Program-made: the position numbers and the translations under genes
Notes under the pieces: generated by a model
The model's input: only the letters and a program-made list of their open reading frames with translations
What the model was told of the DNA's origin: nothing
Databases searched by the model: none
Assembly: GCA_964356815.1 (NCBI GenBank)
Contig: CAYHIR010000003.1
Location: forward strand, 2,198 to 66,197
DNA: 64,000 nucleotides
Direction of reading: 5' to 3'
Source: an uncultured Candidatus Saccharibacteria bacterium
GTDB taxonomy: Bacteria; Patescibacteriota; Minisyncoccia; Phycocordibacterales; DATGWK01
Part shown: positions 16,441-56,410 of the stretch, piece by piece
Layout of the letters: each line of letters opens with the position of its first letter
Numbering within the stretch: the first letter of the stretch is position 1

Positions 16441-16570
16441 GTGATAAGAAGAACCAAACACCTTCATCGAAATGCACGGAATAAATTTTTGGTGAAATTT
16501 TTCCTCCTGCTCGGCGCCAAGCGCCTCCGCAGAGTCATTTCTCAAAAGGTGTTTGGTTCTTCTCCTCACT
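16441..16570 (-). repeat. Copy A1 of the multi-copy structured intergenic element (core 16474-16536; 17-bp perfect outer stem 16448-16464 / 16546-16562)
   Basis: The core, read on the minus strand, is GACTCTGCGGAGGCGCTTGGCGCCGAGCAGGAGGAAAAATTTCACCAAAAATTTATTCCGTGC. It lies between pilM and pilN inside the operon. Confidence 0.8.
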
Positions 16571-16600
16571 AACCCACCATCTCTCAGCCCGTCGGCTTCC

Positions 16601-17710
16601 TCACTCCAGATCTTGTAGCTTCCTTAATGCCAAACCTAATGCAACGGCGAATTCGGGACCATTCTTGCGGAGAATTTCGGTGAGAAAGGCGGGTGCTTGG
16701 ACTTTGCTAAATGGATCGCCGAGGGCGACGGGTGTTTCGAGATTTTTTTGCGCGAGTTCAACAAAACCCTTCATCGTTGCCCCACCGCCCATGAGGATGA
16801 CCTTCTCCACACTCTTGTTGTGTTTACTTTGATAATTGATGAGTACGTGACGCGCTTCGGCAAAAATATAATCGAGAGTGAGAGCGATGGTGTCGGCTAA
16901 AGTTTTTTGGCCCGGATCCGCAGACCAGCCGACGGTGCGTTTCATTATCTCGGCTTGGTCGAGCGGCATATTTAAAGAAGTGGCAATGGTGGAAGTAATA
17001 TCTTGCGAGCCGCGATTGATAGTGTGAGAGTTGCGCACGATGCCGCGCTCTATTATATAAAGCTTGGTTGACGCGGCACCAAGATCGAGAATCATTACGG
17101 GCCGAGTGTTGTCGTCGAGCACGGAACGAATGGTGCTAAAAATTTCAATTTCAAAAAAACCAACATCCAAACCAGCTTTGCTGACGATAGTTTCATAGTC
17201 GCGAAGTGTATCGTTGTGAATGGCTACGAGCAAAATATCTGTCTTTGGAATAACTTTGCCCCCCACTGCTTCCACACCCGGGTCATGATCTGTCTGATCG
17301 CGCGGGATGATAGACCAGTCGAGACTCACTTCGGCGATGGGCACCGGAATATATTTTCGCGCCTCAGTGGGTACCATTTGTGCGAGCTGTTTTTCGCCAA
17401 CATTTGGCAATTCAATGATGGTCATGAGGCTAGCCGAAAAAGGAATGGCGACACCCGCCACTTTTGTGGTAGTTTTTGCTTCGCGGAGAATATCGATAAG
17501 TGCGAGTACGACTTTTTCCACCGGCAAATTTGTCGCCCGGCCAATTTCCATCTTTGTATAAGGACCAAGCGCGAGTGCGCCGTATGTTTCGAGCATGACC
17601 CGACTTCCCTGCCTGCGGAGCTGGACGATTTTGATTGCCGACGAACCGATATCCACCCCGATCACACTGCCAGAGGCTCTTTTAAATAAACTTGATAGAA
17701 AATTAGCCAT
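16601..17710 (-). CDS. pilM: Type IV pilus assembly protein PilM (actin-like ATPase)
   Basis: 369 aa with an FtsA/PilM fold (GVDIGSSAIKIVQL). Confidence 0.85.
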   Translation of the reverse strand: MANFLSSLFKRASGSVIGVDIGSSAIKIVQLRRQGSRVMLETYGALALGPYTKMEIGRATNLPVEKVVLALIDILREAKTTTKVAGVAIPFSASLMTIIELPNVGEKQLAQMVPTEARKYIPVPIAEVSLDWSIIPRDQTDHDPGVEAVGGKVIPKTDILLVAIHNDTLRDYETIVSKAGLDVGFFEIEIFSTIRSVLDDNTRPVMILDLGAASTKLYIIERGIVRNSHTINRGSQDITSTIATSLNMPLDQAEIMKRTVGWSADPGQKTLADTIALTLDYIFAEARHVLINYQSKHNKSVEKVILMGGGATMKGFVELAQKNLETPVALGDPFSKVQAPAFLTEILRKNGPEFAVALGLALRKLQDLE

Positions 17711-17847
17711 CTTGATAGATAGTTCAAGACAAGTATAGCACAGGGAGCGCGAGCGGATGGTGGACGAACGGCGGAAATTTGGCGCTATAAGTGGAAATTT
17801 AGTGAAAGTTAAATAAAACTTGATGCGGTTTATGGAAGAATCGCGCC

Positions 17848-18534
17848 ATGACGAAAATTTTAAGAGAAATTACACGCTTTTTCCTTTATTTGGTTGCGCC
17901 GGAAAAAGAATCCGTGCGGAAACTTTCATATGAAGAGCCGCGAGAGCTCGCGCGAATTTTACCAGCCGCGAAGCCGATTGCCTATCTGCGTGACGGCGCG
18001 CAAAATCTTTTTGCACTTTTTGCTTATAAAGATCGACGAGTAAAAGAAATAGTTTGGGAAATAAAATATCGGAAGAATTCAGCACTAGCGGAAAAGATTG
18101 GCTTTTTGCTTTTTGAAAAGATGAAAGCGCGAATACGAGCGCGAGCAGAAAATTTTAATGGGAATCCGCCGGAAATTATTCTCGCGCCGATACCCACAAG
18201 CAGTGCGCGAAGGAAAGAAAGAGGTTTTAATCAGTGCGAAGTAATTTGTGAAGCAGTGATGAAAAATGCACCGCCAGCCAGCGAAATTTTTTCTTACGAA
18301 CCTTATTTGCTAGCAAAAATAAAAAACACGCCGCATCAAGCCGATCTCACGCGCAAAGAACGACTCACAAATGTCGCCGGCTCTTTCGCTATTCCCCACC
18401 CTGAAAAAGTTTGCGGCAAAATTATTTTTATTGTCGACGATGTAATCACCACCGGGCGCACTATCGGCGAAGCAGAGGCGATGCTCATGGAGGCAGGTGC
18501 GAAAAGTGTTTATGGTTTTGCGATCGCGCATTAA
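17848..18534 (+). CDS. comF: ComF family protein (phosphoribosyltransferase domain)
   Basis: The C-terminal PRT motif is IIFIVDDVITTGRT. The size and architecture match ComFC/amidophosphoribosyltransferase-like competence proteins. Confidence 0.75.
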   Translation: MTKILREITRFFLYLVAPEKESVRKLSYEEPRELARILPAAKPIAYLRDGAQNLFALFAYKDRRVKEIVWEIKYRKNSALAEKIGFLLFEKMKARIRARAENFNGNPPEIILAPIPTSSARRKERGFNQCEVICEAVMKNAPPASEIFSYEPYLLAKIKNTPHQADLTRKERLTNVAGSFAIPHPEKVCGKIIFIVDDVITTGRTIGEAEAMLMEAGAKSVYGFAIAH

Positions 18535-18602
18535 TAAAATCGGCGCGGAGCTACAACGGCATTAGAAAAACTCCAAAAAACATGTTACGCTGACGGAGTT
18601 TT

Positions 18603-18689
18603 GGAGACGTGGCTGAGCGGCCGAAAGCGCCTCACTGCTAACGAGGTAGGGTCTAAAAGCCCTCGTGGGTTCGAATCCCACCGTCTCCG
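18603..18689 (+). tRNA. tRNA-Ser (anticodon GCU)
   Basis: Cloverleaf: acceptor GGAGACG/CGUCUCC+G, D-arm GCUGAGCGGCCGAAAGC, anticodon loop CU-GCU-AA, long variable arm, T-arm GUGGGUUCGAAUCCCAC. CCA is not encoded. Confidence 0.9.
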
Positions 18690-18703
18690 TAAATAGACTT
18701 TCA

Positions 18704-18967
18704 ATGCCAAACTCAATTTTTCTCTTGTTACCCATCGCCCTCTTTATTTTTTGGACAGGCTATGTCCTGTGGCTTTTTGTGCGAGGTTTACATGACGGAA
18801 AAGTAATGCGCAGAAATATGTTTAGCTCGGCTTTCAAATACATTCCGGGAAAAATTTTCACTCGCGCGGAAAATCCTGTAGCGTTTTGGGCTTTTATTGG
18901 GCTTTATTTTGTTTTAGCGATTTGCGGTGTCGCGGCTGTTATTTTAATTCTCATCCTACTTATTTAA
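18704..18967 (+). CDS. Small integral membrane protein (hypothetical)
   Basis: 87 aa with two hydrophobic helices. Start chosen after the tRNA. Confidence 0.4.
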   Translation: MPNSIFLLLPIALFIFWTGYVLWLFVRGLHDGKVMRRNMFSSAFKYIPGKIFTRAENPVAFWAFIGLYFVLAICGVAAVILILILLI

Positions 18968-18983
18968 ATATTTTTAAGAAAAA

Positions 18984-19403
18984 TTAACCGTTTCTTGATT
19001 TCGAATCTGCATAGTAAATCATCGCGTCGTGCATAAATTTGGCGAGACCAGGCGCGATTTTGTCGTGAGTTGATCGGAAACGTTCGTCGTTTACGTACAT
19101 GTTTGCCAAGCCACGATACATTTCGAGATTTGGTTCGTAAAAATTGCGCAAACTTTCGTAATGACGACCGATGAGCTTCTGCACTTCTTCACTTTTTGGC
19201 CCTTCATTCATGCGCGACACAATGCCCTGCATAATTTTTGCGCTCTCATGTGCCATCTTGAGCATGCCAAATTTGCCGAGTTTCTTCACCCGTTCTTCCG
19301 ACTGCTTAAAAGCCTCGGTGTCGCCCCACTTATCTTTTGCCTCAGCCGCGAGTTTATCCATGTCTAGGTTGTCTAAGTTTAAATCGCCGTTTAAGTCGTT
19401 CAT
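18984..19403 (-). CDS. TipAS antibiotic-recognition-domain protein
   Basis: 139 aa. It has the conserved TipAS pattern (KWGDTEAF ... YESLRNFYEP ... MYRGLANMYVNDERF ... APGLAKFMHDAMIYYA). Confidence 0.7.
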   Translation of the reverse strand: MNDLNGDLNLDNLDMDKLAAEAKDKWGDTEAFKQSEERVKKLGKFGMLKMAHESAKIMQGIVSRMNEGPKSEEVQKLIGRHYESLRNFYEPNLEMYRGLANMYVNDERFRSTHDKIAPGLAKFMHDAMIYYADSKSRNG

Positions 19404-19573
19404 GTGTTTATATTTTTGCGTTTTTAAATTATGTTAAAAAGATTAAGTTTGGAAATAATGCTCTAAAATTCAAAACCGGTCAATCACTTCTCGACTCCCG
19501 ACCCCCAATTTCCAATTTCCCATTTCCCATAAGTCATTTTTGTGCTATTGTCTTCGTCAGAAAGGAACCAAAC

Positions 19574-19822
19574 ATGGACGACCAAACACCCGACAGTCCG
19601 CCTTCTGTAAAATGGCGTTACTGCGACTGCTCATGTCATCGAAGTGAGCACATTCAACACATGATGGCTTGCTGTGACGGTCAATGTCCCCACTGTGGCC
19701 ACTGGATCATCGGCTTTGATGAACACATTCGTGATCAGCATCCATCGGCACTAGCAGAGGAAATGATGTGCGGAGGAGGTGAAACACCACCCGAACAGCC
19801 ACCGCAATCCATGACAGCGTGA
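19574..19822 (+). CDS. Small Cys/His-rich protein (putative zinc-binding), hypothetical
   Basis: 82 aa: MDDQTPDSPPSVKWRYCDCSCHRSEHIQHMMACCDGQCPHCGHW. It is preceded by AAAGGA. Its stop overlaps the recG start region. Confidence 0.45.
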   Translation: MDDQTPDSPPSVKWRYCDCSCHRSEHIQHMMACCDGQCPHCGHWIIGFDEHIRDQHPSALAEEMMCGGGETPPEQPPQSMTA

Positions 19823-19896
19823 GAATTGCGGACGAAACCTCGAGGACCAGCTATAATAGGCTGGTCCGCTTTCATTATCTAGCATCACCAATCTCC

Positions 19897-35780: not shown

Positions 35781-35909
35781 ATTTGCGAGACAGCGAAAGC
35801 AAAGCCGTTCTCACGATTCCACCTGTTGCCAGGATTGTCGTAAAACGCGTTCAGCTTGCGACCAACATCGTTGCGATTCGCACCGAGAAGGTTCGGGTTG
35901 CCGTCTGAA
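35781..35909 (-). repeat. Orphan DGR template-repeat-like element (TR2), cognate to VR2 at 36275..36403
   Basis: It is 129 bp with about 80% identity to the 3' end of gene 36265..37017. Its minus-strand translation is Asn-rich (SDGNPNLLGANRNDVGRKLNAFYDNPGNRWNRENGFAFAV). 17 of 26 differences from VR2 are at coding-strand adenines. Confidence 0.6.
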
Positions 35910-36264: not shown

Positions 36265-37017
36265 CTAAGCACAAACTTGCGAGACAACAAAAGCGAAGCC
36301 ATCCTCACGACCCCACCCGTAGCCAGGCCAGGCGTAGAACGCGCTCAGCCTACGACCATCGCCGTCGCGACCCGCACCGAGAAGGCTCGGGTAGCCGTCT
36401 GAACCTTTGATGGTGTCGTGCATTGCGATGATCCACCACAAACCCATGGCTTTGATCTCTTCATCCGAGTAGTTTGCTCGTATGAGACATGCGAGCTCGG
36501 CATTCGGGGTGCTCCAGCCACGCTTCTGGCCATCGGCACGAATGTTCTCTGTGGTTCGCAGAGTGTCGGAAAAAAGTTCTCCTTTGAGCACGGCGACACG
36601 GTAGGTCACATTGTTCGTTGTCTTGAAGCTGGGTGAACGAAGAACGAATTCGGCTTCAGAACCAATGCTGTACCCATTCTCCTTGAACCAGGTGATCCAC
36701 TCCTCTCCGGTCTTGCCGTTTGAGGTGACCGAGAAGTAGATGACGCCGTCTTCCTCACGCCAGCGAAGAGCTGGTGTTGAAACCACCAATTCACCACTCG
36801 CAAGCCGATGAACAGCATCAAGTCCTCCAACCCTCTGAATGAGTCGCTCGAGAAGATCGTCTTCGCCGCGGAGAAACCTCTTGATGTCGCTCAGCCAACG
36901 ATCACCATCAATACCGGCCAACCTCAAAGCGATGTCGATGAAGATGCCGAGCTTGGACTCTTCCAATCCACCAATGGCCATAAAAACCTTGCCGAGCATG
37001 CTGTCTCTTGCTTGCAT
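36265..37017 (-). CDS. Putative DGR variable protein (C-type-lectin-fold-like C-terminus) carrying VR2 at 36275..36403
   Basis: 250 aa. The C-terminus is ...SDGYPSLLGAGRDGDGRRLSAFYAWPGYGWGREDGFAFVVSQVCA. The VR ends 8 nt before the stop. The gene is GC-rich relative to its surroundings. Confidence 0.55.
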   Translation of the reverse strand: MQARDSMLGKVFMAIGGLEESKLGIFIDIALRLAGIDGDRWLSDIKRFLRGEDDLLERLIQRVGGLDAVHRLASGELVVSTPALRWREEDGVIYFSVTSNGKTGEEWITWFKENGYSIGSEAEFVLRSPSFKTTNNVTYRVAVLKGELFSDTLRTTENIRADGQKRGWSTPNAELACLIRANYSDEEIKAMGLWWIIAMHDTIKGSDGYPSLLGAGRDGDGRRLSAFYAWPGYGWGREDGFAFVVSQVCA

Positions 37018-44130: not shown

Positions 44131-44131
44131 T

Positions 44132-44362: not shown

Positions 44363-44370
44363 AAATGTAT

Positions 44371-44602: not shown

Positions 44603-45025
44603 TTAGCCTTGGCGCATTACAAACTTCGACTTAAGTGGAAGCTTGGTACCGGCCTTGCGGATGGCCTCCTTTGCCGTCGGCTCATCCACGCCCTCAATTT
44701 CGAACATGATTCGACCAGCAAGCACAGGCACTTGATAGCCCTGTGGATCGCCCTTACCCTTTCCAAGCTTTACCTCGGCCGGCTTTTGAGTGTAAGGCAT
44801 GTCTGGGAAGACGCGGATCCATACACGGCCCGTTTTACCCAAAGAGCGAGAAAGGACCTTACGAGCCGCCTCAAGCTGATTTGAGCGAACACGAGCATAC
44901 GAAACCGCCTTGAGACCATATGAACCAAAGGCCAAAGAAGTACCGCGTGTAGAAACACCCACCTTTTTTGGATTCTTTCTGAAAGTGTGCCACTTTCGGT
45001 ATTTAACTTTTTTTGGAATTAACAT
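44603..45025 (-). CDS. rplP: 50S ribosomal protein L16
   Basis: MLIPKKVKYRKWHTFRKNPKKVGVSTRGTSLAFGSYGLKA. Confidence 0.9.
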   Translation of the reverse strand: MLIPKKVKYRKWHTFRKNPKKVGVSTRGTSLAFGSYGLKAVSYARVRSNQLEAARKVLSRSLGKTGRVWIRVFPDMPYTQKPAEVKLGKGKGDPQGYQVPVLAGRIMFEIEGVDEPTAKEAIRKAGTKLPLKSKFVMRQG

Positions 45026-45048
45026 GATGGTTTTTTAATCGCCGCGCA

Positions 45049-45723
45049 CTAGCTAGTTTGACCGGGCTTTTTCGCAAAAATGTCGCCTTTGTAGATCCAA
45101 ACCTTTATGCCAATGCGGCCGTAGGTCATGCGAGCTTCGTGTCGAGCAAAATCGATATCGGCGCGAAGAGTCTGAAGAGGAATTTGACCTTTTTTCTGCT
45201 TCTCCACACGGGCCATTTCTGAGCCGCCAAGACGACCAGAAAGCTCAATCTTGGCACCTTTTACTTCTTTATTGGCCAACATCTTTTCAATAGACTGCTT
45301 GGAAACGCGACGGAAAGGCAAACGCTTCTCGAGGCCGTCGGCAATCATTTGAGCCATGATGCGAGCGTTGGTTTCTGGATAACGAATTTCTTTAATATCA
45401 ATTTTCAAATCATCCTCTGTAGTGATGCCGAGTTTTTTGCTTAGTTTTAAAAGATCATTTCGAAGCTTTACTGCTCCCTCACCGCTTCGGCCAATAATAA
45501 GACCGGGGCGAGCTGTTTCGATAATTATTCGCAAAGTTTTTTGGCCGCGCTCTATTTCTACATTACTTACAAACATGCCACGAAAACGATTTTCCAAATA
45601 TGTGCGTATTAAAATGTCGCTCTTTAAAAACTTTTTGTATAAACCTTTAGGCGCAAACCAGCGAGACTTCCAGTCTCGAAGAATTCCTAAACGATGTGAA
45701 TATGGATGGACAGTGTGTGACAT
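45049..45723 (-). CDS. rpsC: 30S ribosomal protein S3
   Basis: KH domain plus the S3 C-terminal domain. Confidence 0.9.
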   Translation of the reverse strand: MSHTVHPYSHRLGILRDWKSRWFAPKGLYKKFLKSDILIRTYLENRFRGMFVSNVEIERGQKTLRIIIETARPGLIIGRSGEGAVKLRNDLLKLSKKLGITTEDDLKIDIKEIRYPETNARIMAQMIADGLEKRLPFRRVSKQSIEKMLANKEVKGAKIELSGRLGGSEMARVEKQKKGQIPLQTLRADIDFARHEARMTYGRIGIKVWIYKGDIFAKKPGQTS

Positions 45724-45727
45724 GTTT

Positions 45728-46144
45728 TTATTTTTTGGCTTTGGCCGCGCGAGCTTCGCCAGCGTCTAATTTTCTCTGCGCCATTTTTGAACGCTTAGAA
45801 GCAACGACGATTGGCTTTTCTGTGAGCTCAACGATCACCTTGCTTGTGCGCTTGCGCATACGGAAAGCTCGACCGTGGGCCATCGGCAGGCTTCGGTAAA
45901 GAATGGCGCCACCGTCGACAGTAATCTTGCTGATTATAAGCTCATCAGCATTCATGCCACCGGCTTTAGCATTGGCAACAGCAGACTGAATAAGCTTTTG
46001 GATAGGCATAGCCGCCTTCTTACCAGCAAATTGAAGCGCCGCCAAAGCCCCCGGCACACGCTTCCCTCTTACCAAGCCAGCAATAAGCCGGACCTTTCGT
46101 GGCGCTTGGCGATAATTATTTAATTCGGCTTTTGCTGTGTTCAT
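45728..46144 (-). CDS. rplV: 50S ribosomal protein L22
   Basis: RKVRLIAGLVRGKRVPGALAALQFAGKKAAMPIQKLIQSAVANA. Confidence 0.9.
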   Translation of the reverse strand: MNTAKAELNNYRQAPRKVRLIAGLVRGKRVPGALAALQFAGKKAAMPIQKLIQSAVANAKAGGMNADELIISKITVDGGAILYRSLPMAHGRAFRMRKRTSKVIVELTEKPIVVASKRSKMAQRKLDAGEARAAKAKK

Positions 46145-46180
46145 TTTTTTGTATGAAAATTTTTCGTTCCGCGCCGAAAA

Positions 46181-46528
46181 TTATTTCTTTTTAGCGGCAT
46201 CTCCAGTGGCCTTAGCAGATGAAGCGGCCGCGATCTCAGCCTCCTTGGCCTTCATTTCCATTTCTTTCTGCATCTTACCTCCGTGACGGATGAATTTGCG
46301 TGTTGGTGAAAATTCGCCAAGACGATGACCGACCATGTCTTCAGTAACCAAAACCTCAATATGCTCACGGCCATTGTGCACGCCAAACTTATAGCCGACC
46401 ATTTCCGGTGCTATTTGGCTGTCGCGTGCCCATGTCTTAACAACCCCAGCTTGATCGGGCTTTTTACCCTCAATTTTCTTGAGGAGTTTTTCGTAAACGT
46501 ATGGGCCTTTTTTACTTGATCTGGTCAT
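46181..46528 (-). CDS. rpsS: 30S ribosomal protein S19 with a C-terminal extension
   Basis: [77 protein letters not shown]. Confidence 0.9.
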
Positions 46529-46530
46529 CT

Positions 46531-46640
46531 AAATTTCTTAACAGGTTTTAAAGTGAACGGCATAAATTTCTGCTGAAATTTTGCCTCACTCTCGGCCACC
46601 TACGTGGCCTGCGAGAGTCACTTAAAAACCTGTTAAGAAA
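46531..46640 (+). repeat. Copy B1 of the structured intergenic element (opposite orientation); 19-bp perfect outer stem 46531-46549 / 46622-46640. It abuts the rpsS start codon
   Basis: AAATTTCTTAACAGGTTTT ... AAAACCTGTTAAGAAATTT enclose the core AAAGTGAACGGCATAAATTTCTGCTGAAATTTTGCCTCACTCTCGGCCACCTACGTGGCCTGCGAGAGTCACTT. Confidence 0.8.
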
Positions 46641-46851
46641 TTTAAGCGACCAAAGCGATCAAAAAAATGTAAAGGGGACTCAAAAACAAAAAACCTGCCC
46701 CTGTTCAAGAAGGCAGACCCGACCCCGGCTGACAATGCTAGGCGGGTTCCCTAAATGGGAACGCTATATGCGTGGATACCATGCTATCATAAGCCCAGTT
46801 TGGGTCAAGGTTTATAATTGTTTGGCTTAGTCTAATACTCTAAAAACAAGA

Positions 46852-47778
46852 ATGAATGAAAATAAATCGGGGTTTATTTCACGCTTAATAAAAGGTGTTT
46901 TGCTTGTTTCTGCGATATCGTTTGGGCTGTACGCCCTGGTTATCGTATTTTCATTCGGACCAATGCTTGTGCCTCCAAGTGTATTTAACCCAGTAAGGAA
47001 CCTTTTTTCAAAAAATTATTTAGTTGAAGGAACGCACAAACTTGAAAAAAATAACCCAAAGGAGGACATTAGTAAGGTTATTTGGATGGACGCAAACGGA
47101 CAGGCGAATACTGCTGGCTTGGAAATTAGCCGGTGTCCAATTCTAAAAAAATATCTAAATCTTTGGCCTAAACAAGCTGGAGGCACTTTCAATATAAATT
47201 TTGAAAAAAATCTTTTTGTTATAAACAATGAATTAAGCGAAACAAAAGGAGATTTTGTAATCTTTGACAACAGCTGTTCTCTTAAAAGAGAGGTTTCTAT
47301 GCCCGAAACATACTCCCAGGCAGGCCTGGAAAACCCTACTTGGATGGGGAGTGATTTGTTTTTTCAAAAATTTAGTAGGGATTCAAAGGAAAACGGAAAA
47401 TACATATATTCATATTATCTTCTTAACCCATTTGATTTTGAAACCGGAGACAAATATTTAAAACTTAGATCAGATATAGATCGACTAGAAAGCGATAACA
47501 GCGTACACAGCATAAGCGGAATAAATTTTAACCCCAACAATCCTGATTTTGCAGCCGGACAGTACTGCCTAGATTACGGAGGAGGATTTTACTCAGCTTG
47601 CTACAGAACTGTTGTCGTGGTATTTAATAAAAAAATTCCCATGGTGAAAGAGGTGTTTGCAAAAAGTGCTGGTTACTTAGACACAGGCTGGTCTAAAGAT
47701 AATCTATTTATAAGAGAGAGGAGCGATCTTTCGAACGACACGGTCCACGTCATACCAATCAAGAATATTGAGTGGTAA
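46852..47778 (+). CDS. Hypothetical membrane-anchored protein encoded on the opposite strand inside the S10 ribosomal operon
   Basis: 308 aa with an N-terminal TM (LLVSAISFGLYALVIVFSFGPML). It is AT-rich. It lies between rpsS and rplB, which are normally adjacent. Confidence 0.55.
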   Translation: MNENKSGFISRLIKGVLLVSAISFGLYALVIVFSFGPMLVPPSVFNPVRNLFSKNYLVEGTHKLEKNNPKEDISKVIWMDANGQANTAGLEISRCPILKKYLNLWPKQAGGTFNINFEKNLFVINNELSETKGDFVIFDNSCSLKREVSMPETYSQAGLENPTWMGSDLFFQKFSRDSKENGKYIYSYYLLNPFDFETGDKYLKLRSDIDRLESDNSVHSISGINFNPNNPDFAAGQYCLDYGGGFYSACYRTVVVVFNKKIPMVKEVFAKSAGYLDTGWSKDNLFIRERSDLSNDTVHVIPIKNIEW

Positions 47779-47810
47779 AAGAAAGCTATTGTTGATAGAA
47801 CTAGATAGAA

Positions 47811-48656
47811 CTACTCGCGCTTTTTTCCAACACGTCGTCTCGAAACAATGAAAACATTTGAGTACTTCTTTGGAGTACGAGATTTTTGGCCTTTGCCTGT
47901 GCCTTTGCCGTGACGAGTTTTGGCACGACGAGTACCGCGACCTTGGCGACCTTCACCTCCACCGTATGGATGATCCACTGGGTTCATGGCTGTACCACGC
48001 ACTGTAGGACGAATACCGAGCCATCGATTTCTGCCGGCTTTACCGATGTTTACCAAGCGATTTTCATCGTTTGAAACTTCACCGACAGATGCCCAAGCAG
48101 TTTCGAGAATTCTTCGCACTTCAGTGGAAGGCATTTTGATATGAACGAAACCGCCGTCTTTGGCGATAACCTCAGCAAAATTGCCGGCTGAACGAGCGAT
48201 CTTTGCGCCACCGTTTGGCTTTAGCTCAACATTGTATACAAAAGTTCCAACGATAATATTTTTCAAAGGCAGACGATTGCCCGGCTTGATAGGTGCAGTT
48301 TCTGAAGCAACAACCTCATCGCCTGGACGAACACCTTTTGGCAAAAGCATGTAGCGCTTAGCGCCGTCTTTGTAGTGGACAAGACCAATGAAACCACTTC
48401 GGTTTGGATCATATTCAACTGTCTGCACGATAGCAGGCACGCCAACCTTTTCCATAGTAAAATCGATCTCGCGGAAAAGACGCTTCACGCCACCGCCCTT
48501 ATGCTGAACGGTTACACGACCGAAAGCATTGCGACCATTTGAACGACGAAAGCCGTGAGTGAGGGCTTTGTGAGGCTCAGACGCAGTCAAAAACTCCGAG
48601 TAATTGATCGAAGTCATATTTCGACGTGATGGTGTGACTGGTTTGAATCTTTTCAT
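47811..48656 (-). CDS. rplB: 50S ribosomal protein L2
   Basis: 281 aa with the L2 signature (GGGEGRQGRG...). Confidence 0.95.
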   Translation of the reverse strand: MKRFKPVTPSRRNMTSINYSEFLTASEPHKALTHGFRRSNGRNAFGRVTVQHKGGGVKRLFREIDFTMEKVGVPAIVQTVEYDPNRSGFIGLVHYKDGAKRYMLLPKGVRPGDEVVASETAPIKPGNRLPLKNIIVGTFVYNVELKPNGGAKIARSAGNFAEVIAKDGGFVHIKMPSTEVRRILETAWASVGEVSNDENRLVNIGKAGRNRWLGIRPTVRGTAMNPVDHPYGGGEGRQGRGTRRAKTRHGKGTGKGQKSRTPKKYSNVFIVSRRRVGKKRE

Positions 48657-48706
48657 GTTTTTTATTTTAGATTTTTCCGGCGGGCGAAATTTTTGCCTAA
48701 TCGCGA

Positions 48707-49114
48707 TTACACGATTTCAATCTTCTCCCCCGCTTTGAGGTAGACATAGGCCTTTTTGCCGCCTTTCTTCACGCCAGCTTTGCCACGAGAGAATACCTTT
48801 TTTGCTGGCACTTGCACAACGCGGACCTTTGATGGCTTCACATTGTAGACATCTTGCACAGCTTTGGCGATAGAAATTTTTGTCGCGCTTGAGTGAACGT
48901 CGAAAGTGTAGACAGGAGCGGCTTTTCCGTCTTCACCACCTTGAGCGAGCATCGTGGCTTTTTCAGTAATTCTTGGATTCAAAAGAACGAGTGTAAAATC
49001 GCCAGCTGGATTTTTCGGGCCGGTAGAATCAGAATTTTTTAGGACAGCATTTTCTACAGGAACTTTCTTTTCCTTAGGAGCCTTTGTTTCTTTTTTTGAT
49101 TTAAATAAAGCCAT
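48707..49114 (-). CDS. rplW: 50S ribosomal protein L23 with an N-terminal extension
   Basis: KISIAKAVQDVYNVKPSKVRVVQVPAKKV. Confidence 0.85.
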   Translation of the reverse strand: MALFKSKKETKAPKEKKVPVENAVLKNSDSTGPKNPAGDFTLVLLNPRITEKATMLAQGGEDGKAAPVYTFDVHSSATKISIAKAVQDVYNVKPSKVRVVQVPAKKVFSRGKAGVKKGGKKAYVYLKAGEKIEIV

Positions 49115-49119
49115 GGTGA

Positions 49120-49779
49120 TTATTCGAGTTTTCTGGCAATCGCGCCGATAGAAACTTCTGGGTTCACAAAGACAATGTATTTGTAAGACATAATATCGAG
49201 TGGATTCAAATTGCGAGATTCGTCGACCAAAACATTACCGAAATTTTGGAAACTGCGCTCTAAGCCAACATCTTTTTTGTCGAGAGCGATGTAGAGAGCG
49301 TTGTTTTTCTTGATAGCATTTTTTAGAGAATCGATTTTACCCAAACTTTCAAACACGCCACGCGCTTCTTTTGTCTTTGAAGCTTTAAGTGTGAGACTGT
49401 CGAGGAAAACCACCTGTCCATCTTTAAATTTTTTAGACAAAATAGTGTAAAGAGCTTTAGCTTTCATTTTCTTGCTCACAGTGCGAGAGAAATTTTTCTC
49501 ATTGCGAGGACCATGTGTGACACCTCCACCAACCCAAATAGGTGAACGGCTAGAGCCGTGACGAGCGCGACCTGTGCCCTTTTGTTGCCACGGCTTCTTA
49601 CCTCCACCGCGCACTTCGCCACGATTTTTGGTGTGAGCCACAGGCTTGCGCATATTTGTACGAAGAGATGTGACGACCTGATGCACGAGATCTGAATTCC
49701 ACGGCAAACCAAAAACGCCTTCAGGAATTTCGATATTCCCTGCTTCGCTTCCGGTTTGTTTGTAAAGTGTGGCTTTCAT
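49120..49779 (-). CDS. rplD: 50S ribosomal protein L4
   Basis: MKATLYKQTGSEAGNIEIPEGVFGLPWNSDLVHQVV. Confidence 0.9.
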   Translation of the reverse strand: MKATLYKQTGSEAGNIEIPEGVFGLPWNSDLVHQVVTSLRTNMRKPVAHTKNRGEVRGGGKKPWQQKGTGRARHGSSRSPIWVGGGVTHGPRNEKNFSRTVSKKMKAKALYTILSKKFKDGQVVFLDSLTLKASKTKEARGVFESLGKIDSLKNAIKKNNALYIALDKKDVGLERSFQNFGNVLVDESRNLNPLDIMSYKYIVFVNPEVSIGAIARKLE

Positions 49780-49781
49780 GT

Positions 49782-50399
49782 TTATACCCCGCGGATCTCC
49801 ACTACTGTGCCTCGACGGCCAGGAATAGCTCCTGATACGAGAATAAGATTGCCCACAGCATTGGCCTGGAGAACTTTGAGACCTTTGACGCTCACAACAG
49901 CACCACCCATACGGCCGGCCATGCGCATGCCTTTTGGTACTTTGTTGCGAAGACCACCGCCGATAGAGCCGGCCTCGCGCTCAGAATGCTTCTGACCGTG
50001 ACTTCGAGGACCACCGTGGAAACCATGGCGCTTCACAACACCCTGAAAGCCCTTACCCTTTGAAATGGCAGTAACGACGATTTTGTCGCCAGCGGAGAAA
50101 GCATCGGCTTTGATTGAGTCGCCTACTTTTGACTCGGCAAGATCGGCGGCATCGAGACGAAACTCTTTTAGGAGAGAGAAATTGCCAAGCTCTTTTGTGT
50201 GACCAAGCACAGGCTTAGAAATATTTTTAGCCTTGCGTGTACCGTAGCCCACTTGAAGCGCACTGTAGCCGTCGCGCTCTTTTGTCTTCACTTGGGTGAC
50301 GACAATCGGACCAGCAGAAACAATCGTTGCAGGCTGAACTTTACCGGCATCGTCGAAAATCTGAGTCATATGCATTTTTTTTCCGAGAATGATTTTCAT
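49782..50399 (-). CDS. rplC: 50S ribosomal protein L3
   Basis: L3 family, 205 aa. Confidence 0.9.
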   Translation of the reverse strand: MKIILGKKMHMTQIFDDAGKVQPATIVSAGPIVVTQVKTKERDGYSALQVGYGTRKAKNISKPVLGHTKELGNFSLLKEFRLDAADLAESKVGDSIKADAFSAGDKIVVTAISKGKGFQGVVKRHGFHGGPRSHGQKHSEREAGSIGGGLRNKVPKGMRMAGRMGGAVVSVKGLKVLQANAVGNLILVSGAIPGRRGTVVEIRGV

Positions 50400-50791
50400 T
50401 ACATTATCTTCACATCGATATTGACACCTGAAGGCAAGCTTAGATTTGTGAGCGCTTCGATGATTTTTGGATTCGGATTGATGATGTCGATCAAGCGCTT
50501 ATGAATGCGCATTTCAAATTGCTCACGGGCATTTTTGTAGACGAAAGCCGCGCGGTTGACCGTGTACTTCTTGATCTCTGTAGGCAGAGGAATCGGACCA
50601 ACAACCTGAGCATCGTAGCGAAGAGCTGTGTCGATTATTTGACGCACCGAAACATCGAGAATCTTATACTCGTAGGCACGAACGCGGATACGAAGCTTAG
50701 AGATACCGTCGGCTTTTGCAACCTTAGACTCCTTAGCTTCTTTAGAGCTATGGGCCTTTGCCTTTTTCGTTGTTGCCTGTTTGGTAGTCAT
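50399..50791 (-). CDS. rpsJ: 30S ribosomal protein S10 with an N-terminal Lys-rich extension
   Basis: KLRIRVRAYEYKILDVSVRQIIDTALRYDAQVVGPIPLPTEIKKYTVNRAAFVYKNAREQFEMRIHKRLIDI. Confidence 0.9.
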   Translation of the reverse strand: MTTKQATTKKAKAHSSKEAKESKVAKADGISKLRIRVRAYEYKILDVSVRQIIDTALRYDAQVVGPIPLPTEIKKYTVNRAAFVYKNAREQFEMRIHKRLIDIINPNPKIIEALTNLSLPSGVNIDVKIM

Positions 50792-50861
50792 GTGATTTTA
50801 ATGTGCAGTTTTTTGTGCGATTCCCTAAAATGTGCGGGCTGTCAGATTACCAGAGAAGTGT

Positions 50862-52058
50862 TTATTTTACAACCTTTGTGACAACTCCGGCGCCGACTGT
50901 CTTACCACCTTCGCGGATAGCAAAGCGCTGTTTTTCTTCTAGAGCAATAGGAGCAACGAGCTTCACCTTAAAGGTAACTGTGTCTCCAGGCATAACCATT
51001 TCGACTTTTTCAGGAAGAGTTACTTCGCCAGTTACGTCTGTAGTTCGCATATAGAACTGTGGTTTGTAACCGTTGAAGAAAGGAGTGTGACGACCACCTT
51101 CTTCTTTCTTAAGAATGTAGACTTCAGACTCAAATTCTGTATGGGGATTGGCTGTACCCGGCTTAGCAATAACCTGACCGCGAGAAATATCTTCTTTCTT
51201 TAAGCCTCGGAGAAGAACACCAGCATTGTCGCCAGCCATACCTTCTTTTAGAGACTTGTTGAACATTTCAATACCAGTAATAACGCTTTTGACCGTTGGC
51301 TTCAAACCAATAAGCTCAACTTCTTCACCAACCTTTGCAATACCGCGTTCGATACGACCAGTAACGACAGTACCGCGACCTTCGATAGAGAAAACATCTT
51401 CGATTGGCATAAGGAATGGCTTGTCGAGCTCACGAACTGGCATCGGAATATATGTATCGAGAGCGTTTACAAGCTCAAGAACTTTCATAGACCACTCGTC
51501 GTCGTTTGTTTTTGATTCCAAAGCTTTAAGACCAGAACCACGAATAATAGGAGCAGGATTTGCAGGATCGTCGTAATCGTATTTCTTCAAAAGATCGCGG
51601 ACCTCTTCTTCAACGAGGTCGATAAGCTCTTTATCTGGAACCATGTCACACTTATTGAGGAAAACAATGATTTTTGGTACACCGACTTGCTTAGCAAGGA
51701 GAATATGTTCGCGAGTTTGGGGCATAACACCGTCTGTAGCGGCAACAACCAAAATAGCGCCGTCCATTTGAGCGGCACCGGTGATCATGTTCTTAATATA
51801 GTCGGCGTGACCAGGAGCGTCGATGTGCGCGTAGTGACGAGCATCGCTTGAGTATTCGTTGTGAGAAAGAGAAATTGTAATACCGCGAGCCTTTTCTTCT
51901 GGGGCTGAGTCGATATCATCTACACCCTTAATCTTCACGTCTTTTCCAGCACGATGAAGAACGTTCAAAATAGCGGCTGTTAGCGTAGTTTTTCCGTGGT
52001 CAACGTGGCCAATTGTTCCGACGTTTACATGGGGCTTTGTTCGATCAAAATCTGCCAT
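50862..52058 (-). CDS. tuf: Elongation factor Tu
   Basis: 398 aa with [22 protein letters not shown]. Confidence 0.95.
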
Positions 52059-52227
52059 ATTTTTTTATATTAAAATTAATTTTTTATAATGTAACTAAAC
52101 TAACCGGACGATTAATCATCCCGAATTCGTTTCTTTTGACCAGGCACTAGAGTGCCAAAACAAAAACGACGCGCGAAGCGGTAAAGAATATACTAGCAGA
52201 GGGGTGAAATTAGTCAAATAATTACGA

Positions 52228-52320
52228 AACCTTTGTTTGAAAAGTGAACGGCGTAGATTTCTGCTGAAATCTCGCCTCACTCTCGACCCGTCGGTCTGCG
52301 AGAGTCACTTTGTAAAGTAA
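52228..52320 (+). repeat. Copy B2 of the structured intergenic element (opposite orientation), upstream of tuf
   Basis: AAAGTGAACGGCGTAGATTTCTGCTGAAATCTCGCCTCACTCTCGACCCGTCGGTCTGCGAGAGTCACTT. The inner hairpin CTCTC-GACC/GGTC-GAGAG covaries with B1 and the A-type copies. Confidence 0.7.
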
Positions 52321-52449
52321 ATTCTCTCCATTGTCTAATCGTGTGTTTATTCGTCATGGCTTTGACAACTTTCAAACGACTACGTATCATTTAAGTCAGA
52401 TTCTTAGAGTGTACAGGGATGAGAGAAAACCCAAACAACTGGAGGTAGA

Positions 52450-52812
52450 ATGGGGATTCGAGAAACTCTTCAGAATGTGCCTGAAGCAATGAAAGAGGTT
52501 GTGAGAGAAATCAGGGAGGTGAAGCGAAACCCAAAGAATGGCAAAAAAGATTGGGTGGATTTTGGGGCAGACAGGATCTCTGAATTCATTTTGAAATTCT
52601 TTGATCCTGGAGAGCACGAGGTATTCATGGATCAGTTCCACCGAAGGCTCTTGGACAGGACGGCATTCAGGGATTCGGCAGGAGGGGTTGATGAGTGTCT
52701 CCGAAAAGTCCACGGGAAGATCGCGGAGGCTTTGAAAGAACGAGCTGAGGCTACGAAAACCGCTGTCAAAACGGAGGTAGAAACCAGACAAGAAGTTGGG
52801 GTTGGGGTCTGA
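52450..52812 (+). CDS. Hypothetical protein (120 aa) in the tuf-fusA insertion
   Basis: It is an intact ORF followed by terminator 52821-52850. I recognise no family. Confidence 0.45.
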   Translation: MGIRETLQNVPEAMKEVVREIREVKRNPKNGKKDWVDFGADRISEFILKFFDPGEHEVFMDQFHRRLLDRTAFRDSAGGVDECLRKVHGKIAEALKERAEATKTAVKTEVETRQEVGVGV

Positions 52813-52820
52813 AACGGCAA

Positions 52821-52850
52821 GCCCCGCGCGATGCGCGGGGCTTTTTACTT
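52821..52850 (+). terminator. Intrinsic terminator, copy 1 of a duplicated motif
   Basis: AAGCCCCGCGCGatgCGCGGGGCTTTTT. Confidence 0.7.
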
Positions 52851-52945
52851 GACAAATAAACTAAAAAATGTTAGTAATCTGCCAGGCAGTTCGCCTTCAA
52901 CCGTGGTCGAAAACCACATAAACCCAACAAGAGAGGAGCTAGTTT

Positions 52946-53611
52946 GTGAGTCCAGAGAAGACAATGAGAGTTGATGAAATACTAAAAAGTACCATCAGCG
53001 AAGGTGGGATGGTGCTTGTGCTAGGATGGATGGCCAGATATCACGACCGACTGACTTTAAGGCTGGAAGAAGCTGGACTTGTAAGGTTTGTGGAAGAACC
53101 ACCAAGAGTAATAGCCCCGACGACCTTGGTAATTTTCACGCGGTTCATAAAACACAAATCTACGGAGCGAGCTCGTGGACAAGGGGCAAACGTCTTTCCC
53201 CACTCTTTCACGCCAAGAGCCATCAAGTCGCATCTCAAGGTCCTTGTGTCATTTTTACCCAAAAAGACCGAGGCATCCATCGTTCAACCAATCAAGGTTG
53301 AGTTTGTCCACCAATCTGTCCATCAAGTTGGGAAACAAGGAGAGCAATCCGTGAAAAGTACCGAGAGGTCGGATTCGTCAGAACCAGTCAAAAAGGCTGC
53401 GATTGCGGCGATACCACCCGCAACACCAGACCCGCGTCTTGCATTCGCTGTCGAATTTTCAGAATTGGTCAAACATGACCCGCATGGCGAGCTTGGAAAG
53501 TCCAACACAGCCAAGCTGATCAGGAAACATTTCGGCCAACATACCCGCGCCAGTGCACTCACCGATCTTCTCATTTCAGAGAAGAAAGAGGGAAAAAAGA
53601 AAATCGGCTGA
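52946..53611 (+). CDS. Hypothetical protein (221 aa). The same reading frame continues after a single TGA into a 77-codon coiled-coil-like ORF (53612..53845)
   Basis: The first ORF ends ...KKKIG-TGA. Downstream in frame: YRASELLLELATSQ...IEERIRDLRSQIESLEAELKRAEEAEALLTKLDALLK, then TAA, then a terminator. Confidence 0.45.
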   Translation: MSPEKTMRVDEILKSTISEGGMVLVLGWMARYHDRLTLRLEEAGLVRFVEEPPRVIAPTTLVIFTRFIKHKSTERARGQGANVFPHSFTPRAIKSHLKVLVSFLPKKTEASIVQPIKVEFVHQSVHQVGKQGEQSVKSTERSDSSEPVKKAAIAAIPPATPDPRLAFAVEFSELVKHDPHGELGKSNTAKLIRKHFGQHTRASALTDLLISEKKEGKKKIG

Positions 53612-53875
53612 TATCGAGCATCAGAACTTCTCCTCGAACTTGCCACATCACAGGCGGCCACCAATCGCCCTCCTGATGAAGGCGCAGGTTCTCTGGAGAA
53701 AGCTCGGTGGCTGGTGAGCAGAAAACCAGAGATTGAAGAACGGATACGAGACCTCAGATCGCAGATCGAATCTCTGGAGGCCGAGCTGAAAAGGGCCGAG
53801 GAAGCCGAAGCACTCCTAACGAAACTTGACGCTCTGCTTAAGTAAAGTGACTTGAGCAGACGACGCAAGAACACC

Positions 53876-53906
53876 GAAGCCCCGCGCGACGCGCGGGGCT
53901 TTTTTC
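53876..53906 (+). terminator. Intrinsic terminator, copy 2 of the duplicated motif
   Basis: AAGCCCCGCGCGacgCGCGGGGCTTTTTT: 29/30 identical to the 52821 copy. Confidence 0.7.
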
Positions 53907-53952
53907 TTGCCGAAAAATTAGCATTGGGAGTCCGGGAGCAAATAAACAAAAA

Positions 53953-54056
53953 TATTTTGTGTTTTGAGAAATGACTCTGCGGAGGCGCTTGGCGCCGAGC
54001 GGGAGGAAAATTTTCAGCAGAAAATTATTCCGTGCATTTCGAAGAACACAAAAGGT
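53953..54056 (+). repeat. Copy A3 of the structured intergenic element (core 53973-54035), abutting the fusA stop
   Basis: The core is GACTCTGCGGAGGCGCTTGGCGCCGAGCGGGAGGAAAATTTTCAGCAGAAAATTATTCCGTGC. The arms TTTTGTGTTTTGAGAAAT / ATTTCGAAGAACACAAAAG pair, including G·U positions. Confidence 0.8.
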
Positions 54057-54061
54057 TTTCT

Positions 54062-56203
54062 TTACTTTCTCGCCTCCACTATCTCAGTCTCCACGTTCTT
54101 TGGTACAACCTCGTAATGATCAAATTCCATAGTAGCGTTACCGCGGCCTTCAGTCATAGAGCGGAGCTGGGTGGTGTAGCCGAACATTTCTGAAAGTGGC
54201 ACTTTGGCTCGGATGACTTTGAGCATCCCCCTCTCTTCCATACCTTCTATCTGACCACGCTTGCCTGAAAGTGAGCCGGTGATGTCGCCCATGAATTTCT
54301 CAGGGAAAACAACTTCGATTTTCATAATCGGCTCGAGAATAACGGGCCGCGCACGCTTAGCGGCATCTTGAAAAGCTTTCGAAGCGGCGATTTTGTAAGC
54401 AATTTCAGATGAGTCGACATCGTGAGAGGAGCCGAAAGTGAGCTCGGCAGAAATGTTGACCATTTTGAAACCGGCGACGATACCGCGATCGAGTGCTTCG
54501 CGAATACCTTTTTCAACGGCTGGAATAAACTCTTGAGGAATAACACCACCTTTGATGGAGTCGATAAATTCGAATTCGTCGTAGCGTTTGACGTTTTTAG
54601 GAATTTTCTTTTCAGGATCGAGAGGCTCGAGCGGCTTGATATTGATAACGACGTGACCGTATTGACCCTTACCTCCAGATTGCTTGATGTATTTGTGCTC
54701 GGCTTCGGCTGTGCCAGTGATGGTTTCTTTGTAGGCTACCTGTGGCTTACCGACATTGGCCTCCACACCGAATTCGCGCTTCATACGATCGATCATAATT
54801 TCGAGATGAAGCTCGCCCATACCAGAAATGAGAGTCTCGAATGTTTCTGGATTGGTTGTAATGTGGAAAGTTGGATCTTCATCGGAAAGTTTCTTGAGGG
54901 CCATACCCATTTTTTCTTGGTCAGCTTTTGTTTTTGGTTCGATGCGAAGAGACACGACCGGCGCGGCGAATTTTATAACATCGAGAATGACAGGATTGTT
55001 TTCGTCACAAAAAGTGTGAGATGTTTTTGCACTCTTGAGGCCCACAGCCGCCGCGATTTCACCCGCGAAAACTTTTTTCACTTCCTCGCGTTTGTCTGCC
55101 TGGAGACGGACGATACGGCCGAGTCGCTCTTTTTCACCTGTAGTGGAATTGTAAATATATGTTCCCGATTCAATCGTGCCAGAATAAACACGGAAGAATG
55201 TGAGTTGACCAACGAAAGGATCGGTCTGCAATTTGAAAGCGAGAGCAGCAAAAGGCTCTTCGTCGCTTGCGTGGCGAATGACCTCTCCACCCGTGCGTGG
55301 ATCGATAGCCACAACAGGTGGAATGTCGAGGGGTGATGGTAGATATTCCACAACGCCGTCGAGTACGAGTTGAACGCCTTTATTTTTGAGCGCAGAGCCG
55401 GCAAAAACCGGAATGAGTTTCACTTCGAGAGTGGCTTTACGAAGCACGCGCTTCAGATCTTCAATGCTCGCCTCTTTACCTTCGAGATAGGCGTGCATCA
55501 TGGTATCGTCGTGTTCAACAATTTTTTCTACGAGCTCAGCGTGATATTTTTTGGCTTCTTCGAGATATTCGGCCGGAATTTCTGCCTCGCGGACATTAAT
55601 ACCCATTTCGCCTTCAAAATAATAGGCCTTCATTTTCATAAGATCGATCACGCCGCTAAAATTTTCCTCAAGACCCATCGGAATTTGCAAACGCACAGCA
55701 TTTTTATTGAGACGATCGAGAATAGACGCATACGAACGCTCGAAGCTCGCGCCCATGCGGTCGAGTTTGTTTATAAAACAGACGCGAGGCACTTTGCCTT
55801 CGTCGGCATAGCGCCAATTGGTTTCAGACTGTGGCTCAACGCCAGCCACGCCGTCAAAGACGACCACTGCGCCGTCTAGCACACGGAGCGAACGCTTCAC
55901 CTCTGCGGTGAAATCGATGTGTCCTGGAGTATCGATGATATTGAAGCGATGCATTTGGGATTTGTCTTCACCCATGTAGGTAGGATTCCAAAAACAAGTA
56001 ATCGCGGCTGCGGTGATGGTGATACCGCGCTCTCTTTCCTGTTCCATCCAATCTGTAACCGTATTACCCTCATGCACTTCGCCGATTTTGTGCGACATAC
56101 CAGTATAGAAAAGCACGCGCTCAGATGTCGTGGTTTTACCCGCATCAATATGCGCAATGATTCCGAAATTTCGAACTTTTTCTAATGGGTAGTCGCGGTT
56201 CAT
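54062..56203 (-). CDS. fusA: Elongation factor G
   Basis: 713 aa with [21 protein letters not shown]. Confidence 0.95.
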
Positions 56204-56307
56204 GAAAATTATTTTTTAGAAATATACTTCTGTCGTGACCGGCGTAGATTTCTAAAACATTAAATTAATAAATTAAATAATAACTTGCCAAATGCTTTAT
56301 CAGTGTA

Positions 56308-56410
56308 GCAAACTTTATTTCTGAGAGACTCTGCGGAGGCGCTTGGCGCCGAGCAGGAGGAAAAATTTCACCAGAAATTTATTCCGTGCTCGAAGAAATA
56401 AAATTTGCGA
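56308..56410 (+). repeat. Copy A4 of the structured intergenic element (core 56327-56389), between rpsG and fusA
   Basis: The core is GACTCTGCGGAGGCGCTTGGCGCCGAGCAGGAGGAAAAATTTCACCAGAAATTTATTCCGTGC. The arms GCAAACTTTATTTCTGAGAG / CTCGAAGAAATAAAATTTGCG pair. Confidence 0.8.

Follow-up and report, generated by a model that had tools for sequence, protein, structure and literature searches.

A small palindromic, probably mobile DNA element, previously undescribed and widespread in the candidate phyla radiation (Patescibacteria)

In integron attC sites the R'' and R' boxes at the base of the stem are conserved and the tip is variable. Repetitive extragenic palindromic (REP) sequences and REPINs are ~20-40 nt long, carry a conserved 5' GTAG, are strictly extragenic and are mobilised in trans by a single-copy REP-associated tyrosine transposase (RAYT), an HUH Y1 enzyme whose gene does not adjoin most of them. 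The Rickettsia palindromic elements (RPEs), RPE-1 to RPE-10, are palindromes of ~100-150 bp which occur in many copies, both between genes and in frame within housekeeping genes, with no associated transposase (PMC10969869). The present analysis concerns a palindromic repeat in a 64,000-nt stretch of DNA (the window) from an uncultured Candidatus Saccharibacteria bacterium, 163-kb contig CAYHIR010000003.1, sampled from Hainich groundwater, and its relatives in other genomes of the candidate phyla radiation (CPR). With a probability of roughly 0.6, the repeat belongs to a family of small, non-coding, non-autonomous mobile elements, which resemble miniature inverted-repeat transposable elements, or MITEs, come nearest in behaviour to the RPEs and have spread through Paceibacteria-type CPR genomes.

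Copies, fold and covariation

Two sequence patterns and a covariance model converge on the same copies in the window. A 44-nt pattern of the A-type core, searched with at most one mismatch and compared with shuffled sequence, matched four times, at 16493-16536(-), 25215-25258(+), 53973-54016(+) and 56327-56370(+), with none expected from the shuffles. A degenerate pattern, ACTCTN{10,30}GAGNNNGAGGNNNNNTTTCANNANAAANNNANNCCG, built from the columns invariant across the seven window copies, gave exactly seven matches and no others (0 expected by chance), at 16477-16535(-), 25216-25274(+), 29031-29088(-), 46558-46618(-), 52249-52305(-), 53974-54032(+) and 56328-56386(+). The covariance model R1, run over the window with filters off, returned these seven at 59.6-90.4 bits, with the runner-up at 12.6 bits. 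The window therefore holds seven full copies (~100-130 nt, or 70-130 nt with B2 included) and one truncated copy, and the cores of A1-A4 are mutually 92-98% identical. An earlier reading of the window, hereafter the original prediction, had proposed a multi-copy family with a conserved core and at least seven copies, and the searches bear this out. It had also given A1 the same orientation as A2-A4, which has to be corrected, as the pattern search places A1 on the minus strand as a reverse complement. The placement of copies against gene boundaries (ssrA, rpsS, the fusA and rpsG stops, tuf and pilM) agrees with the gene coordinates. The copies and their positions are as follows.

16441..16570 (-): A1, core 16477-16535, A-type, 59.6 bits; flanked by the pilM stop (16601) and the following gene, a 243-aa gene call with its called start at ~16394
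25181..25310 (+): A2, core 25216-25274, 75.9 bits; between the smpB stop (25131) and the tmRNA gene (25323), ending 12 nt before ssrA
29008..29109 (-): B3, core 29031-29088, outer stem P1 of 22 bp, perfect, 90.4 bits; a thioredoxin-like gene on one side and a peptidoglycan-binding gene on the other
46529..46645 (-): B1, core 46558-46618, 82.6 bits; 2-3 nt before the rpsS ATG (46528)
52241..52311 (-): B2, core 52249-52305, P1 degenerate, 87.8 bits; ~170 nt upstream of tuf, ahead of the conserved tuf promoter/leader
53955..54053 (+): A3, core 53974-54032, 73.5 bits; just beyond the fusA stop (A3 and A4 lie 3-5 nt from stop codons), antisense to fusA
56308..56408 (+): A4, core 56328-56386, 71.9 bits; in the rpsG-fusA spacer, 3-5 nt from the rpsG stop, antisense to rpsG and fusA
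56235..56262 (-): truncated B-type copy, between A4 and the fusA start; 19 nt at 95% identity, E = 0.003

Each copy consists of a conserved core of ~58 nt with two hairpins, P2 and P3, closed by a long copy-specific stem, P1. All seven full window copies fold as one three-way junction, with minimum free energies of -31 to -64 kcal/mol and z-scores of -3.9 to -11.7. P1 measures 17 to >30 bp in the window, the outer stem of B2 being weak, and has a median of ~37 pairs across copies. Outer stems of 17 bp in A1, about 30 in A2, 19 in B1 and 22 in B3 had been predicted, and the folds give 17+, ~30, 19-21 and 22, respectively. Weaker complementarity continues beyond P1, reaching 46-49 nt per arm in A2 and B1. 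The predicted parts of A2, and the extended repeats of both copies, are listed below.

25182..25217 (+): A2, 5' arm of P1, predicted to pair with 25274-25309
25218..25245 (+): A2, hairpin P2, predicted as CUCUGC / GGA bulge / GGCGC-UCG-GCGCC / GA / GCAGG
25247..25273 (+): A2, hairpin P3, predicted as GGAAAAUUUUC-ACCA-GAAAAUU(A bulge)UUCC
25158-25333: A2, extended inverted repeats, weaker pairing
46508-46666: B1, extended inverted repeats, weaker pairing

Throughout the family, P2 carries a 3-nt bulge, GNA, that is conserved, its distal stem (P2b) is rich in GC, and P3 is an 11-bp hairpin, GGNNNNNUUUC-ANNA-GAAANNN-A-NNCC, in which the bulged A is invariant. Invariant bases are concentrated in three places, namely the junction, the bulges and the loop of P3, and a conserved AC dinucleotide of the junction could pair in two different ways. 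Covariation was counted in two sets of copies. In the first, made up of 29 copies taken from genome assemblies and the window, paired cells amounted to 89% compared with 68% in shuffled controls, and 194 cells carried double changes compared with 63. The second set comprised 98 further, independent metagenomic copies; with an alignment that is model-fitted and so leans towards structure, 90% of cells were paired against 65% after shuffling, and double changes occurred in 28/30 pairs. Slid-control alignments were about 40-60% paired over the two sets, and 40-58% in the second. P3 was 99% paired with double changes in 10/11 pairs, and G·U was nearly absent from it (3 in ~980 cells). The distal part P2b covaried in both sets, and the pairing of P3 and P2b is almost purely Watson-Crick. 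The structure of the element is under constraint in all three helices, and the compensatory change noticed in the original prediction is real for P1, P2 and P3 in both the 29 and the 98 copies.

Outside the window, a scan of one genome per species with the exact pattern gave 23 loci, all 23 in CPR assemblies (Zambryski-, Taylor- and Nomurabacteria, Paceibacterota, and metagenome-assembled genomes (MAGs) labelled Saccharibacteria). A pattern scan of metagenomes gave at least 111 stretches, and the covariance model, applied to 80 of these loci, found 98 copies. Pattern and model together extend the family to further CPR genomes and metagenomes, with at least ~130 copies beyond the window, all of them from such sources; no element was found in viral contigs. 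Statistics on orientation, open reading frames (ORFs) and G·U pairs, given below, are based on 110 distinct copies.

No match to the element was obtained with Rfam 15 at the gathering score over the whole window, and at E ≤ 10 the A-type, B-type and Zambryskibacteria-type copies gave only chance matches to microRNA hairpins, far below threshold. The comparison with Rfam suggested earlier has consequently matched no family, at gathering or at permissive E-values, in keeping with the initial impression that the repeat is unlike any described RNA family, and a search of the literature turned up no report of an element like this from CPR. The cores of the hammerhead, twister, pistol and hepatitis delta virus ribozymes were compared by eye, and their junction strands do not fit.

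Filled sites, turnover and copies within genes

The cleanest pair of filled and empty sites is that of L032 and L079 (loci used for comparison carry L numbers). L032 contains a 126-nt insert with both arms, between a stop codon and the next ATG, and the insert ends in a direct repeat, ATAAAAT / ATAAAAGT (7-8 bp); the empty site in L079 has no hairpin. Flanking repeats of 7 bp are also present at the L005 and L060 copies. The rpsG-fusA spacer is 210 nt long in the window (A4 and the remnant) compared with 9 nt in L025, where EF-G is 89% identical, and L026 (EF-G 91% identical) has a diverged copy in this spacer with the same left junction as the window. The position ahead of tuf that holds B2 in the window is occupied by a copy in L029 as well and by a plain terminator hairpin in L030. 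Moreover, L022 carries a second, 135-nt in-frame copy, which is missing from L021. Syntenic sites in relatives, proposed earlier as a check, are therefore found both filled and empty.

Copies in corresponding positions are not each other's closest relatives. The A4 core is 73% identical to the L026 copy in the same spacer, compared with 92-98% among A1-A4, and the copy that L029 carries upstream of tuf is closer to B1 (90% identity) than to B2 (77%); re-insertion, or conversion between copies, therefore appears to have taken place. Decay by deletion is seen in the truncated window copy at 56235-56262(-), from which the 5' arm and 5' core have been lost; what is left comprises the junction, the 3' strand of P3 and a portion of the 3' arm. 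This remnant is homologous, flanks included, to a full copy at L081 70-158, on a contig from the same sample.

Orphan genes without a Pfam match lie on the opposite strand within conserved ribosomal operons, at 46852-47778(+) between rplB and rpsS and at 52450-52812(+) and 52946-53611(+) between tuf and fusA, and each of the two tuf-fusA orphans is followed by a near-identical terminator hairpin (52819-52843 and 53877-53901). The 1.6-kb tuf-fusA segment is bracketed by the inverted copies B2 and A3 and is missing from L029. The idea that such genes are cargo was considered for the ORF at 46852-47778, beside B1, and rejected; it is without a Pfam match and unrelated to the opposite-strand ORF at rplB-rpsS in L030.

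Copies are also found inside genes. By a simple ORF criterion, 31 of the 110 distinct copies lie within long ORFs in which the frame stays open, the hosts by Pfam being UvrB, UvrC, TsaD, a small-domain methyltransferase, RNase R, TGT, PolA and DnaE. When L001 UvrB is compared with solved UvrB, a clean insert of 43 aa (129 nt) is found between residues 427 and 428, and it corresponds to the whole element, both arms included. The TGT of L054 has a comparable insert of ~40 aa relative to solved TGT structures, and the UvrC inserts are of 37, 37 and 58 aa; insert lengths are multiples of three, and 37-58 residues are added per host protein. The encoded peptide is exemplified by ...EQPGYFSAEKSPHSPASR... 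in UvrB, PolA and TGT. The coding copies are in sense (14) or antisense (17) to the gene and are read in at least three frames, two sense and one antisense. Six-frame openness is 55% in coding and 22% in non-coding copies, and frame-breaking insertions have presumably been lost. At the same protein site, both element orientations occur in different lineages, in UvrB (just before GQIADFI) and in TsaD, which may be due to inversion through recombination of one arm with the other, or to tolerant loops having been used more than once.

According to one alternative, the element is intron-like or bypassed, being excised from the mRNA or passed over by ribosomes, such that the proteins never contain the insert. 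Its occurrence at conserved sites of replication and repair genes is reminiscent of inteins and introns, and in the predicted fold the two flanks meet at the base of P1. This explanation is nevertheless highly improbable in view of the 17/31 antisense copies, the open frames of all coding copies, with the excess of openness over non-coding copies, and the lengths in threes (129 nt in UvrB; 37, 37 and 58 aa in UvrC). Furthermore, among 11 ORF pairs flanking intergenic copies no split genes were found, all being pairs of different genes, and no gene interrupted by a stop-containing copy was seen. Since the frames are open, antisense copies are common and the flanking genes are not split, the coding copies are, as far as sequence can tell, read through and not spliced out. 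Two related candidates were rejected: when copies are deleted in silico, the only ORFs to be joined are ones that Pfam assigns to different genes, which disposes of split genes, and a known ribozyme or self-splicing intron is at odds with the antisense majority of coding copies, with frames that are kept open and with the lack of a match to any Rfam ribozyme model.

Several further observations concern these gene sites. In L110, one ORF (658-2496) joins the 5'-3' exonuclease domains of PolA to the C-terminus of UvrB exactly inside the element; on one side L110 has exactly the sequence of L089 and on the other that of L006, and the fusion has most probably arisen as a chimera in assembly, owing to the repeat. 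The L142 contig ends inside copy A1. At the TGT site that holds the element in L054 and L086, L049 (4480-4590) has a related palindrome with homologous arms and no P3 hairpin, which hints at a wider superfamily of palindromic inserts. The L054 TGT has another insert of ~33 residues relative to solved TGT, at aa 101-133, upstream of the element insert. A second, smaller family of in-frame palindromic inserts, CCCCTCTCC-N5-7-GGAGAGGGG with a GGGGTGAGG tail, encodes roughly SPLLxxGEGxGGEV and is found in UvrB (L001 aa 298-316, L103, L051), TsaD (L036, L097) and TGT (L086), and in L031 compared with L124. It often lies beside the three-way-junction element, in both orientations, and is absent from the window.

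Outer stems, strand bias and mode of spread

Long inverted arms are present in every copy, and sharing between copies is limited to the 8-20 bp adjacent to the core, the distal arms being homologous within subfamilies only. The B3 subfamily (window 29015, two copies in L107 and one in L070) has cores that are identical or ≥90% identical, and its arms are clearly homologous with every difference compensated. The B3 core itself is identical to L107 10414-10503, with arms that are homologous but diverged. L107 and L070 come from the same sample as the window, at a coverage of 18-20 compared with 21 for the window's contig, which suggests that they belong to the same genome. In one other MAG the arms share a motif between its copies. 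The compensated homology of subfamily arms indicates, from sequence comparison, that P1 belongs to the transposed unit and probably diverges fast while remaining paired.

The original prediction had described the outer stems as completely different and had taken this as an argument against a transposon. The description does not hold and the argument is not supported, as arms within a subfamily are homologous and diverged with full compensation, and both arms are inserted DNA, in a family with empty sites, turnover and decay. An origin of the stems as inverted duplications of the target, or as pre-existing hairpins, was also rejected, both arms being extra DNA in UvrB and L032 and the L079 site being free of a hairpin.

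Within P1, 124 internal G·U pairs lie on the element strand and 63 on the other (110 copies), and the element-sense RNA fold is the more stable in 87/110 copies. G·U oppositions had been taken to mark an RNA strand, and the pairs do favour that same strand, at ~2:1. The bias is seen whether the host gene is in sense (17 vs 6) or antisense (19 vs 3), and the constraint therefore follows the element and not the host transcript. This points to a single-stranded intermediate of fixed polarity, and would also fit an RNA of the element strand combined with frequent flipping. Where orientation to host transcription could be assigned, 23 copies were sense and 38 antisense, with unrelated neighbouring genes, which agrees with the earlier remark that orientation is not constant.

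A host-beneficial structured RNA module, whether co-transcribed with neighbouring genes as a signal for processing, stability or termination or set free as a small RNA that acts in trans, might also be expected to show the strong covariation and invariant junction purines described above, together with a more stable element-sense fold and G·U pairs favouring that strand. The P1 base in the B3 subfamily resembles a bidirectional terminator (A-run, GC clamp, T-run), and L030 has a plain terminator in place of the window's element. However, orientation is not kept, so that the fixed orientation and position of a cis-regulatory or riboswitch-like element is not seen (23 sense vs 38 antisense, unrelated neighbours), and the G·U bias tracks the element strand even with the host gene on the other strand. 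Copies lie within essential ORFs and within operons, turn over, decay and are absent from close relatives, the scarcity of G·U in P3 is unusual for a selected RNA helix, and no Rfam family matches. Such a module is accordingly considered unlikely, and some intergenic copies may act incidentally as terminators or processing sites. A separate 25-bp perfect palindrome with a 4-nt loop, preceded by an A-run and followed by a T-run, is present at 8844-8897 in the window; it contains no core element and looks like a bidirectional terminator.

A different possibility is that the element is a DNA-level host site for a chromosomal protein, either a binding site like those of REP sequences and bacterial interspersed mosaic elements or a signal for recombination, replication priming or DNA uptake that acts as a cruciform or single-stranded DNA (ssDNA) hairpin. 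Independence from the direction of transcription, the almost purely Watson-Crick pairing of P3 and P2b and the lack of a nearby transposase are consistent with this. Extrahelical bases are typical of protein-recognised hairpin DNA, such as attC and IS608 hairpins, and the A bulge of P3 and the GNA bulge of P2 are conserved bases of this kind. Nevertheless, the element has inserted in the coding sequence of essential genes, is missing from sites of close relatives and occurs in truncated form, all of which is difficult to reconcile with a need for it at each locus, and no partner protein was identified. In addition, orientation is mixed within 64 kb, and the element therefore does not follow the direction of replication. 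A host site in DNA is, on balance, distinctly unlikely.

The interpretation as a MITE-like mobile family has to be weighed against several findings that count against it. A clear target-site duplication was found in only one filled/empty pair and none is evident at the window copies; family-wide, the mean longest word shared by the flanks is 4.13 compared with 3.85 ± 0.10, a small excess that is partly inflated by palindromic stem ends. No transposase or mobilising gene recurs next to copies, the 770 neighbouring ORFs having clustered into housekeeping families only, and the window's gene tables contain none. Subfamilies do not have terminal inverted repeats in common, and conservation peaks at the centre and falls to its minimum at the termini, opposite to what an ordinary MITE shows. 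All seven full window copies are intergenic, none being within genes. Finally, the occurrence of copies in the same sites of distant genomes and the invariant junction bases are compatible with a host function. Of the two possibilities first raised for the repeat, structured RNA or MITE-like element, the second is the better one; the first, as a host structured or cis-regulatory RNA, is not supported in view of both orientations, in-gene copies, empty sites and turnover.

The inserted unit comprises the long P1 arms and the ~58-nt core with P2 and P3. If the family is indeed mobile, the three-way-junction core would be recognised by a trans-acting mobilising enzyme encoded away from the copies, and the element would act as a strand-specific folded single strand, more probably of ssDNA than of RNA. 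Surviving insertions would be those in intergenic spacers, or in genes where the frame stays open by chance and the insert is translated. The complementarity of the arms may be kept by mismatch correction of arm against arm, or by selection in copies that are still moving, and recombination between copies or arms may make copies uniform, replace them or invert them where they stand. A bolder proposal is that the junction forms the working centre of a mobile element of a new type, which moves as a folded single strand (ssDNA or RNA) by means of an enzyme family new to transposition or of its own catalysis. This would explain the central conservation, the G·U bias of the element strand and the absent transposase, and is unlikely. 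As a variant of this proposal, CPR hosts may have domesticated the element as a portable DNA or RNA signal.

Other features, significance and known systems

Two further features were noticed in the window. A diversity-generating retroelement occupies 57468-60226, with repeats that differ at 18 positions, 16 of these mismatches (16/18) being at template adenines on the coding strand, and two direct repeats lie elsewhere.

57468-58517 (-): reverse transcriptase
58636-58896: bAvd gene
58892-59017: template repeat
59318-59443: variable repeat, in the 3' end of the ORF at 59306-60226(-)
35783-35909 and 36277-36403: two 127-nt direct repeats, 80% identical, 494 nt apart

On the mobile-element interpretation, ~1% of the 64-kb stretch would consist of one selfish repeat, in CPR (Patescibacteria), bacteria with tiny genomes that account for a large part of bacterial diversity. 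Protein-coding palindromes, familiar mainly from Rickettsia, would in that case recur in reduced, host-dependent genomes and be a source of protein insertions in CPR. The repeat also breaks metagenome assemblies and makes chimeras, as in contigs ending inside copies and in L110, and it inflates the apparent number of "CPR-specific insertions" in proteins. The centre-conserved, arm-variable design, taken with the strand bias, turns the mobilising mechanism into a testable question.

Among described systems, the element shares with REP sequences and REPINs the abundance of hairpin repeats and a probable strand-specific, single-stranded action, and its mobilisation in trans is proposed. It differs from them in being ~100-130 nt long, in its three-way junction and in invading ORFs, so that neither the size nor the architecture nor the strictly extragenic location of REP sequences is found, and no RAYT-like gene was seen in the sequence examined, which did not include whole genomes. 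As in attC sites, a folded single strand, extrahelical bases, structure kept more than sequence and a strand bias are apparent; unlike attC, the stem base varies and the tip is invariant, and there are no cassette arrays and no integrase nearby.

With Correia/NEMIS, ERIC, RUP, BOX, SPRITE and QMITE repeats the element has in common that it is small, non-coding and multi-copy, gives long hairpins in transcripts and lies at gene boundaries, and some of its arms are terminator-like, as in SPRITE (PMC10969869). It resembles MITEs in being <500 bp, non-coding and dispersed in many copies (7 and a remnant in 64 kb; at least ~130 elsewhere), and in the direct repeat at the ends of one filled/empty pair. 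MITEs, however, keep their terminal inverted repeats, vary centrally and usually match an insertion sequence, whereas here the centre is invariant and the termini differ between subfamilies, and no parent insertion sequence with matching ends was found among the 770 neighbouring ORFs or in the window gene tables.

The closest parallel is with the RPEs. The element is likewise palindromic and many-copy, occurs in a reduced, host-dependent lineage, both in spacers and as in-frame inserts that add peptide, and has no associated transposase; in-frame palindromes in unrelated protein genes were found in relatives and not in the window itself. It departs from the RPEs in belonging to an unrelated phylum, in having a central three-way junction that is conserved across CPR lineages while the arms vary, in its use of three or more reading frames and of either orientation at one protein site, and in its strand-specific G·U bias. 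Because the hosts are CPR bacteria, membership in the RPEs by descent is unlikely, and the element is likened to them by behaviour, not by sequence.

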